Positions 34,800 through 36,894 of a DNA stretch of 64,000 nucleotides are shown one piece after another. The translations under genes and the position numbers were made by a program. The first letter of the stretch is position 1, and every line of letters starts with the position of its first letter. Below the pieces are notes generated by a model. That model had not been told where the DNA came from and did not search any database. It saw nothing but the letters and a program-made list of their open reading frames with translations. The stretch comes from Escherichia coli (lineage in GTDB: Bacteria; Pseudomonadota; Gammaproteobacteria; Enterobacterales; Enterobacteriaceae): assembly GCF_003790525.1 (NCBI RefSeq), contig NZ_CP033635.1, one strand, 5' to 3'.

Positions 34800-34876
34800 G
34801 GCTACGTAGCTCAGTTGGTTAGAGCACATCACTCATAATGATGGGGTCACAGGTTCGAATCCCGTCGTAGCCACCA
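34800..34876 (+). tRNA. metT: tRNA-Met (elongator, CAU)
   Basis: GGCTACGTAGCTCAGTTGGTTAGAGC...CTCATAA...GGTTCGAATCC...CCA; cloverleaf readable. Confidence 0.95.
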
Positions 34877-34884
34877 TCTTTTTT

Positions 34885-34969
34885 GCGGGAGTGGCGAAAT
34901 TGGTAGACGCACCAGATTTAGGTTCTGGCGCCGCAAGGTGTGCGAGTTCAAGTCTCGCCTCCCGCACCA
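34885..34969 (+). tRNA. leuW: tRNA-Leu (UAG), long variable arm
   Basis: GCGGGAGTGGCGAAATTGGTAGACGC...GATTTAGGTTC...CCA, 85 nt. Confidence 0.9.
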
Positions 34970-34992
34970 TTCACCAGAAAGCGTTGTACGGA

Positions 34993-35067
34993 TGGGGTAT
35001 CGCCAAGCGGTAAGGCACCGGTTTTTGATACCGGCATTCCCTGGTTCGAATCCAGGTACCCCAGCCA
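34993..35067 (+). tRNA. glnU: tRNA-Gln (UUG)
   Basis: TGGGGTATCGCCAAGCGGTAAGGCACCGGTTTTTGATACCGG...CCA. Confidence 0.9.
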
Positions 35068-35101
35068 TCTTCTTCGAGTAAGCGGTTCACCGCCCGGTTA
35101 T

Positions 35102-35176
35102 TGGGGTATCGCCAAGCGGTAAGGCACCGGTTTTTGATACCGGCATTCCCTGGTTCGAATCCAGGTACCCCAGCCA
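35102..35176 (+). tRNA. glnW: tRNA-Gln (UUG), second copy
   Basis: Identical to the preceding tRNA-Gln(UUG). Confidence 0.9.
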
Positions 35177-35191
35177 TCGAAGAAACAATCT

Positions 35192-35268
35192 GGCTACGTA
35201 GCTCAGTTGGTTAGAGCACATCACTCATAATGATGGGGTCACAGGTTCGAATCCCGTCGTAGCCACCA
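35192..35268 (+). tRNA. metU: tRNA-Met (elongator, CAU), second copy
   Basis: Identical to metT copy. Confidence 0.95.
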
Positions 35269-35316
35269 AATTCTGAATGTGTCGAATATGTTCGGCAAAT
35301 TCAAAAACCAATTTGT

Positions 35317-35391
35317 TGGGGTATCGCCAAGCGGTAAGGCACCGGATTCTGATTCCGGCATTCCGAGGTTCGAATCCTCGTACCCCAGCCA
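35317..35391 (+). tRNA. glnV: tRNA-Gln (CUG)
   Basis: TGGGGTATCGCCAAGCGGTAAGGCACCGGATTCTGATTCCGG...CCA; anticodon CTG. Confidence 0.9.
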
Positions 35392-35428
35392 ATTTATTCA
35401 AGACACTTACCTTGTAAGTGCACCCAGT

Positions 35429-35503
35429 TGGGGTATCGCCAAGCGGTAAGGCACCGGATTCTGATTCCGGCATTCCGAGGTTCGAATCCTCGTACCCCAG
35501 CCA
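35429..35503 (+). tRNA. glnX: tRNA-Gln (CUG), second copy
   Basis: Identical to glnV copy. Confidence 0.9.
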
Positions 35504-35508
35504 CATTA

Positions 35509-35540
35509 AAAAAGCTCGCTTCGGCGAGCTTTTTGCTTTT
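35509..35540 (+). terminator. tRNA operon terminator
   Basis: AAAGCTCGC-ttcg-GCGAGCTTTTTGCTTTT. Confidence 0.8.
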
Positions 35541-35641
35541 CTGCGTATATTCAATGTCGAATGCGATGTTGATACAGCTAATTTGAATTTGGCCCACGGT
35601 TCAGGGCAAACCAGCCTGGAAGCACACTCAGGCGCGGTTTT

Positions 35642-35681
35642 CCCCCTCACCCTAACCCTCACCCGAGGGGCGAGGGGACCG
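35642..35681. repeat. GC-rich imperfect palindrome (CCCTCACCC x2 ... GAGGGGCGAGGGG), likely dispersed-repeat family member at ubiF 3' end
   Basis: CCCCCTCACCCTAACCCTCACCCGAGGGGCGAGGGGACCG read directly; family membership not verified. Confidence 0.4.
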
Positions 35682-35718
35682 TCCGCACGCTTTTGTAGCT
35701 TTGGTATCAACCGTTACG

Positions 35719-36894
35719 CTACAACCCTAACGCATATTTCAGCGCCTGACGTTTCAACACGCCAGCACGCTCCGCCGCCATTAATCCGAGATTACGCATA
35801 AAACGCAGTGGTGGCAGATTATTGCTGAATCCGGCATAAAACAGATCCATACCGCTTTGCATAATGAAGTTATCCGCCATGCGCCGCATCTGGTAACGCT
35901 TGAGCACAGGATAACTGGCCCACGCTTCGCCGTAGCTGCGGGCGTTCACCAGAACGTCAATCAGGGCATCGACATCACGATAACCAAGATTCACCCCCTG
36001 CCCCGCCAGCGGATGGATGGTATGCGCGGCATCTCCCACCAGTGCCAATCCCGGCTGAACATACTGCAACGCATGGCGACGTGTCAGCGGAAACGCCCCC
36101 GCGGCAAGCGGTGTCACGTAACCCAGACGCGACGGGAAATGCTTCGCGATTTCCGCCTGTAGCTGCGCCATATTCATATTCTGCAACTGGCGAATGCGCG
36201 CCGGAGAGTCATACCACACCAGCGATGCCCAGTTATCAAACAACGGCAGAAACGCACGCGGTCCGTCCGGGGTAAATTGCTGCCAGGTGCTATCGCCGGG
36301 ATCGTTCTCGCACTGTACGCTAATCAACATACACGACTGTGCATACTGCCAGGCATGAACGCCAATTCCCGCCATCTGCCGCACCTGCGAATTTGCGCCG
36401 TCGGCACCAATCACCAGCTTCGCGCGGATCGTTTCACCGCCCTTCAGTTCCAGCTCCTGAAGATCATTATGGCGATGCAGCGCAATCAGCGAGCCTGGCA
36501 CACGTAACGTTACTTTCGGATGCGCTTCCAGCGCCTGCCACAGCGCCTGTTGCAGGACAGTGTTTTCCACCATGTAGCCAAGCAACGGTAGCTTAAGTTC
36601 AGCGGCGTCAAACACCACATGCGCCGTTTCCCACTCCCACGTTTCCAGTCTGCGGTAAGGATGGCAACGCATAGCCTGTACTGCATCCCAGACCCCTAAC
36701 CCTTTAAGCAATGATACCGAAGCCGCACTAATCGCCGAGATCCGCACGTCCGGCTGGCTGTCAGCGACAAACGGTGCAGGTTGGGCATGTTCGATAACCA
36801 TTACCGAAAATCCGTGCTGAGCCAGTCCCAGCGCCAGTGCGCCGCCGACCATTCCTCCGCCGACAATGGCAATTTCCGTTGGTTGATTTGTCAT
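35719..36894 (-). CDS. ubiF: 2-octaprenyl-3-methyl-6-methoxy-1,4-benzoquinol hydroxylase (FAD monooxygenase)
   Basis: 391 aa from ATG at 36892..36894 (MTNQPTEIAIVGGGMVGG, FAD GxGxxG); ORF-track start is an upstream alternative start. Confidence 0.9.
   Translation of the reverse strand: MTNQPTEIAIVGGGMVGGALALGLAQHGFSVMVIEHAQPAPFVADSQPDVRISAISAASVSLLKGLGVWDAVQAMRCHPYRRLETWEWETAHVVFDAAELKLPLLGYMVENTVLQQALWQALEAHPKVTLRVPGSLIALHRHNDLQELELKGGETIRAKLVIGADGANSQVRQMAGIGVHAWQYAQSCMLISVQCENDPGDSTWQQFTPDGPRAFLPLFDNWASLVWYDSPARIRQLQNMNMAQLQAEIAKHFPSRLGYVTPLAAGAFPLTRRHALQYVQPGLALVGDAAHTIHPLAGQGVNLGYRDVDALIDVLVNARSYGEAWASYPVLKRYQMRRMADNFIMQSGMDLFYAGFSNNLPPLRFMRNLGLMAAERAGVLKRQALKYALGL

Follow-up and report, generated by a model that had tools for sequence, protein, structure and literature searches.

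REP sequences are bound by several proteins and are mobilised by a dedicated transposase. Like the REP/BIME elements of enterobacteria, the BoxC repeats of Escherichia coli are imperfect palindromes, short and GC-rich, which occur in multiple intergenic copies and often at the 3' ends of genes. On the other hand, the two share no sequence similarity, REP has no counterpart of the third block found in BoxC, and we know of no transposase that mobilises BoxC and no protein that binds it. The names BoxC and PIT reportedly go back to Bergler (1992), to Bachellier (1990s) and to Hoyne and Maher (2000, 2002). BoxC also resembles MITE-type repeats (ERIC/IRU), being dispersed, non-coding, about 100 bp long and polymorphic for presence or absence.

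Holder et al. (2015, PMC4666352) described the motif under the name TMECO, and stated that it equals the repeat named BoxC earlier and PIT element later. They gave the consensus as CCCTCNCCC-N3-6-GGGNGAGGG-N3-GGGNGAGGG[G/T/C/-] and reported TMECOs in 262 proteobacterial genomes, 23 copies in E. coli K-12, and related G/C-rich motifs in cyanobacteria (PMC4666352). For copies other than the one described here, the isolated strand forms a triplex in vitro, whereas DMS footprinting in vivo gave no triplex signal (PMC4666352). PIT elements block DNA polymerase in vitro, and TMECO loci are associated with variable intergenic regions (PMC4666352). In the account of earlier experiments given by Holder et al., PIT elements had neither promoter nor terminator activity, left RNA polymerase unaffected, and displayed no orientation bias and no correlation with gene function (PMC4666352).

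Our results clearly demonstrate that the GC-rich palindrome located just 3' of ubiF is one copy of this dispersed repeat. The window, which is the whole 64-kb stretch of E. coli DNA that was analysed, has the following features in this region.

34800 to 35503, plus strand: tRNA operon metT-leuW-glnU-glnW-metU-glnV-glnX (Met, Leu, Gln x2, Met, Gln x2), from ARAGORN and the K-12 annotation, convergent with ubiF
35509 to 35534, both strands: bidirectional intrinsic terminator outside the repeat, a GC hairpin flanked by an A-run on its 5' side and a T-run on its 3' side
35576 to 35717: variable cassette of 142 bp with the BoxC unit, from the alignment with K-12
35619 to 35643, minus strand: type A 3' arm, GGAAAACCGCGCCTGAGTGTGCTTC in core orientation, homologous by BLAST to the O157 flgF-flgG copy
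35630 to 35692, both strands: extended imperfect palindrome from minimum-energy folds, whose outer stem (35630-35637 paired with 35683-35692) encloses the core hairpin
35644 to 35676, minus strand: BoxC/PIT/TMECO core, from the consensus regular expression and an identical string in the published Table S8
35676 to 35668, minus strand: C-block, CCCTCGCCC
35667 to 35665, minus strand: loop 1, CTC
35664 to 35656, minus strand: G-block 1, GGGTGAGGG
35655 to 35653, minus strand: loop 2, TTA
35652 to 35644, minus strand: G-block 2, GGGTGAGGG, with a trailing G at 35643
35677 to 35718, minus strand: type A 5' arm, aacgGTTGATACCAAAGCTACAAAAGCGTGCGGACGGTC in core orientation, starting right after the ubiF stop codon
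35719 to 36900, minus strand: ubiF open reading frame, from the list of open reading frames, the K-12 annotation and the annotations at the matches in other genomes, with the stop codon TAG at 35721-35719

The initial annotation had placed an imperfect palindrome at 35642-35681, at the ubiF 3' end and downstream of the tRNA operon. The sequence there is as it was quoted, CCCCCTCACCCTAACCCTCACCCGAGGGGCGAGGGGACCG, and the element is intergenic, lying between the ubiF stop (35719) and the end of glnX (35503). As the tRNA operon is on the plus strand and ubiF is on the minus strand, the repeat is situated between convergent transcription units. The annotation had also recognized a GC-rich hairpin and a direct repeat, and both were recovered. 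A repeat finder detected CCCTCACCC twice (35644-35652 and 35656-35664, spacing 12) together with the inverted arms CCCCTCACCC and GGGCGAGGGG (35643-35652 and 35668-35677), which are 90% complementary. The 69-nt unit folds with -36.7 kcal/mol on the minus strand, which is the sense strand of ubiF (z -2.85 versus shuffles), and with -28.4 kcal/mol on the plus strand (z -1.94), and is thus more stable than shuffled sequences on both; folding was also carried out on 101-nt stretches of both strands. With up to 3 mismatches, the 34-mer occurs once in the 64 kb, as does a relaxed hairpin pattern, and 0 occurrences are expected for either from 100 dinucleotide-preserving shuffles.

The minus strand from 35676 to 35644 reads CCCTCGCCC-CTC-GGGTGAGGG-TTA-GGGTGAGGG-G. 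A regular expression of the TMECO consensus matches exactly at 35676-35644, plus the trailing G, and this is the only match in the window. Because the second loop is TTA, the copy corresponds to type A in the scheme of Holder et al.; it is a solo copy with one mismatched triplet. Eight of the nine triplets are canonical for a purine-motif triplex (seven G*G-C and one T*A-T), and the remaining one is A*T-G. Judged from the sequence, the three blocks would qualify for a purine-motif intrastrand triplex, for which at most one mismatched position is allowed. The C/G/G three-block architecture, the TTA loop, the single mismatched triplet, the flanking arms, the intergenic position and the membership in a multi-copy family are all traits of BoxC/PIT/TMECO. 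The copy departs from the usual BoxC in that both of its G-blocks are GGGTGAGGG, whereas the first block is usually GGGAGAGGG, so that the mismatch is G.T instead of G.A. Loop 1, with 3 nt, is the shortest that the consensus allows. Among the K-12 copies only no. 14, located between aaeR and tldD, has the same combination of blocks, and it also has the same triplet pattern. Since the two G-blocks are identical, the C-block can pair with either of them. The minus strand further contains a putative G-quadruplex motif, GGGTGAGGGTTAGGGTGAGGGGG, with four G3 runs and 3-nt loops as identified by a regular expression. In contrast to G-quadruplex motifs proper, the adjacent C-block of BoxC would compete through formation of a hairpin or triplex, and NMR on related oligonucleotides indicated that the triplex is favoured over the quadruplex (PMC4666352).

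This very copy had already been catalogued. The identical string CCCTCGCCCCTCGGGTGAGGGTTAGGGTGAGGGG is found three times in the supplement of Holder et al. (2015), and Supplementary Table S8 lists it for strains SMS-3-5 (695776-695809, entry 156) and IAI39 (665251-665284, entry 259). Our 100%-identical BLAST matches (SMS-3-5, 695756-695824; IAI39, 665231-665299) agree with these coordinates. According to the same table, these two genomes harbor only 6 to 7 intact TMECOs each (PMC4666352). As the element is a member of the family and the copy itself is in the published catalogue, we consider it already known, a real but ordinary copy. An Rfam covariance search of positions 35400-35800 returned only tRNA and sub-threshold noise, and no RNA family covered the element; the only matches overlapping it scored far below the gathering thresholds (Antizyme_FSE, 17.6 bits versus 40; NEAT1_2, 17 bits versus 60).

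The homology extends beyond the core. All 18 K-12 loci, which hold 23 copies, were retrieved by their published coordinates, oriented and aligned. A 5' arm with the consensus cTGATGACAAAGtcTAAAAAgnGCnCGGACGGTC is common to the K-12 copies at yihR-yihS, fimH-gntP, ygfF-gcvP, alx-sstT and fepB-entC and to the O157 flgF-flgG copy. The type A 3' arm has the sequence GAAAACC.. or GAACAGGCCAGCACTGGTGCGAA, and a flank of the form GAAAACC/GAACAGGCC...GCAC is common to K-12 copies. Both type A arms are present in the ubiF copy. Type B copies, which have a CCG-like loop, differ from type A in their arms. A profile built with nhmmer from 16 type A copies, none of them from the ubiF locus, gave a single match in the window, on the minus strand at 35636-35718 (E=1e-18, 62 bits), and BLAST aligned positions 35619-35715 with the homologous O157 flgF-flgG copy. 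These two spans indicate a repeat unit of about 95-100 bp. The 40 bp delimited by the initial annotation therefore cover the core, and the homologous unit is longer, extending over about 35619-35718. The assignment to the family rests on the consensus match and the common flanks, both of which were verified. Five K-12 loci carry inverted composites of a type A and a type B copy. At hrpB-mrcB, fepB-entC, ygfF-gcvP, alx-sstT and lldD-trmL we also observed that the spacer joining the two copies of a composite is conserved and about 28 nt long (GAACAGGCCAGCACTGGTGCGAA.ATT), and solo type A copies resemble half-elements.

A genome-wide search with the 69-nt query, of the kind that the initial annotation had proposed, yielded 87,105 places; 5,425 of the 5,426 complete E. 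coli genomes have such places, with a median of 18 and a maximum of 31 per genome. Its suggestion of a dispersed repeat family thus proved correct, given the exact consensus, the common flanks, the number of places per genome and the catalogue entry. A chance GC-rich palindrome without relatives is ruled out by the shuffles, the genome-wide copies, the consensus, the catalogue entry and the profile match. In some genomes (NZ_AP024687.1, 4184066-4184133; NZ_LR890270.1) the best BoxC-like match overlaps an annotated thiQ coding sequence, in a family that has been described as strictly intergenic.

Does the hairpin terminate ubiF transcription, as the initial annotation had considered? A GC-rich stem-loop 40-90 nt past a stop codon is what one would look for in an intrinsic (Rho-independent) terminator, and BoxC shares this arrangement. 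It differs from intrinsic terminators in that its stem is long and interrupted, and that the ubiF strand lacks a U-tract; after the hairpin the minus strand reads CUGAGUGUGCUUCC / CTGAGTGTGCTTCC. A scan for terminators and promoters called nothing at the element. About 100 nt further on, at 35534-35509 on the ubiF strand, there is a canonical hairpin followed by U6 that is conserved in strains without BoxC, and the experiments on PIT elements reviewed by Holder et al. recorded no terminator activity (PMC4666352). The missing U-tract makes it almost certain that BoxC is not the intrinsic terminator of ubiF. The scan called the hairpin at 35509-35534 on the plus strand only. Since the minus-strand fold gives the same hairpin followed by UUUUUU, we regard it as bidirectional. 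It is conserved in K-12, ends the tRNA operon and is likely to terminate ubiF as well.

A related possibility concerns the opposite strand, where BoxC could act as a back-up terminator for transcripts that read through from the tRNA operon and would otherwise run antisense into ubiF, with the extended hairpin followed by TTTTGTAGCTTT. The outer stem on the plus strand does end at 35692, inside a TTTT run (35691-35694), and an A-run (a T-run on the other strand) occupies the same position in roughly half of the type A copies. Nevertheless, the plus-strand fold is the weaker of the two (z -1.94), is broken by internal loops and was not called by the scan, and a strong terminator is already present upstream at 35509-35534. 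Terminator activity was also absent in the assays reported, in which the orientation and flanks may have differed from those of the present copy. We therefore consider a back-up terminator very unlikely.

Comparison with K-12 revealed that the repeat occupies a slot that can be filled in two ways. The K-12 counterpart of 35576-35717 is an unrelated stretch of 80 bp (NC_000913.3, 696277-696356 region); on either side of it the sequence is conserved, terminator and ubiF stop codon included. The allele with BoxC is present in 37 of the 5,426 complete E. coli genomes (about 0.7%); the K-12 allele is found in 5,372 (about 99%) at a coverage of at least 80%. The K-12 cassette, GTCGGATGCGACGCTGCCGCGTCTTATCCGACCTAC, resembles what we take to be the REP consensus, and its sequence occurs in at least 40 places per genome, as against about 20 for BoxC. 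RefSeq annotates no repeat at this REP-like cassette. When aligned with it, the cassette of the window displayed no similarity to the K-12 sequence. The view that the palindrome is not a standard REP is thus borne out, and a REP-like sequence resides in the alternative allele. The same slot, from the ubiF stop to the terminator of the tRNA operon, thus holds either a REP-like or a BoxC cassette.

The ubiF copy of BoxC is restricted in lineage. Its carriers include SMS-3-5, IAI39 and CE10, all of which we take to belong to phylogroup F. As a possible sign of transposition we considered the perfect 8-nt inverted repeats GTTGATAC (35568-35575) and GTATCAAC (35704-35711), which bracket the cassette. 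We rejected them; we estimate that chance alone would give about 0.2 such pairs in 171 nt, and one arm sits in sequence that is conserved in K-12 with one mismatch. At the ubiF cassette we found no terminal inverted repeats beyond chance and no target-site duplication, in which the element differs from MITE-like repeats. Elsewhere, the copy between aaeR and tldD is nearly fixed, being present in 5,415 of the 5,426 genomes, and therefore some BoxC copies must be long-lived. Many lineages have 6- and 12-bp length variants of this copy (spans of 315 and 309 bp versus 321 bp). A search of the 5,426 genomes for a REP/BoxC swap at aaeR-tldD found none, only small indels.

The alternation of a REP-like sequence and BoxC in one slot, together with an excess of solo type A copies between convergent genes (7 of 11; P about 0.008 on an assumed background of 25%), makes it attractive to suppose that the BoxC hairpin stabilizes the 3' end of the ubiF mRNA as REP does. 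It would block a 3'-5' exonuclease or provide a processed 3' end, and BoxC and REP would be interchangeable. The RNA fold in the ubiF sense is stable (-36.7 kcal/mol, z -2.85), the repeat starts right after the ubiF stop and lies upstream of the terminator, and in about 99% of E. coli the REP-like cassette is at the exact same position. However, the enrichment fades when all loci are counted (8 of 19; P about 0.08 on the same assumed background), and among tandem gene pairs of K-12 no orientation bias is seen, as 2 solo type A copies are sense and 2 antisense. In addition, the literature records no orientation bias and an unaffected RNA polymerase. We judge a stabilizing role of this kind unlikely. 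The excess of solo type A copies between convergent genes could reflect a role at 3' ends or selection against insertion in promoters. We set the enrichment aside as evidence of function, as it is weak over all loci and the background of 25% is assumed.

Among the carriers of the ubiF copy, all sequence differences fall in the 34-nt core. Thirty-two carriers are identical over 201 bp (window positions 35540-35740). Strain Rb-50 has four differences; all lie within the core, the remaining 167 nt being unchanged (P about 8e-4), and they bring this core nearer to canonical type A. In SCU-172 and two other genomes the core is lengthened by a 7-bp tandem expansion, with CGAGGGG in three copies instead of two. 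The clustering is consistent with slippage or conversion in a repeat that is prone to form structures, and the changes fit the published link between TMECOs and variable intergenic regions.

We also searched for the core motif in one genome per species. At least 133 matches were obtained in at least 120 stretches, and the matches listed lie outside the Enterobacteriaceae. Among the matches listed, the core is present in multiple copies in metagenome-assembled genomes (MAGs) labelled Hydrogenophaga, Hyphomicrobiaceae, Anaerolineales, Planctomycetota, Melainabacteria, Ottowia, Competibacteraceae, Moraniibacteriota and Dehalococcoidia. The MAG taxa with the core, again among the matches listed, span Chloroflexota, Planctomycetota, Melainabacteria, Patescibacteria, and Alpha- and Betaproteobacteria; these cross-phylum copies come from MAGs, in which binning errors are possible. 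The flanks of the MAG copies listed are lineage-specific, and loop 2 is mostly TTG, TTA or CTG. In the Anaerolineales MAG JAUXWL01 the core recurs more than 30 times within a repeat unit of about 180 bp; the units are 97-100% identical and often lie at contig ends, which is MITE-like. As Holder et al. had reported proteobacterial TMECOs and related cyanobacterial motifs, the wider spread over phyla extends a known observation.

The recurrence of the core in distant phyla is hard to square with pure neutrality. A cellular factor conserved across many lineages could recognise the C/G/G core, or the core could be generated by a general copying mechanism driven by DNA structure. BoxC at ubiF would in that case stand in functionally for REP in the 3' UTR, for example in RNA decay or as a barrier to replication or transcription. 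We hold this to be quite improbable. A narrower proposal, also among those of the initial annotation, is that BoxC is a specific binding site for a protein, such as a nucleoid protein, a helicase, or a transposase or recombinase that spreads the family. The core is strongly conserved among copies, even across phyla, while the flanks differ, and the closest analogue, REP, is generally known to be protein-bound and transposase-mobilised. Against this, no gene in the window for such a protein is linked to the element, the family is nearly absent from plasmids (58 of 87,105 places, the other 87,047 being chromosomal), and the literature consulted on BoxC/PIT/TMECO reports no binding protein (PMC4666352). 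This option is unsupported, and the probability that BoxC is such a site is, in our view, very slight.

We consider it very probable that the ubiF copy of BoxC is a non-coding, non-autonomous solo type A repeat of about 95 bp with a 34-nt core, which is tolerated at ubiF as a structure-prone sequence. That it serves no dedicated function there is most likely, and is an argument from absence. The repeat occupies part of the 3' UTR of ubiF, after the stop codon and ahead of the shared bidirectional terminator. When single-stranded, either as RNA or as DNA exposed in replication or transcription, the C-block and either G-block would form a stable hairpin. The third block may add a purine-motif triplex, as it does in vitro in other copies when their DNA strands are isolated. 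The expected outcome would be local instability of the core by slippage or conversion and turnover of the entire intergenic cassette, and not regulation of ubiF. The locus lies at about 0.7 Mb, and compared with K-12 and SMS-3-5 the window has the reverse orientation. If the replichores of E. coli are arranged as we assume, the G-rich strand of the repeat would be the lagging-strand template and would therefore become single-stranded once per replication. We infer this with little weight, as the literature reports no strand bias.

For the annotation of this region, an apparent oddity is removed, as the palindrome is a catalogued BoxC/PIT/TMECO repeat and is neither a new regulatory element nor the terminator of ubiF. 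The clustering of changes in the core among carriers agrees with the published tie of BoxC repeats to local instability. The ubiF locus is also an example of a slot that holds either a REP-like cassette, in about 99% of E. coli genomes, or a BoxC cassette, in about 0.7%.
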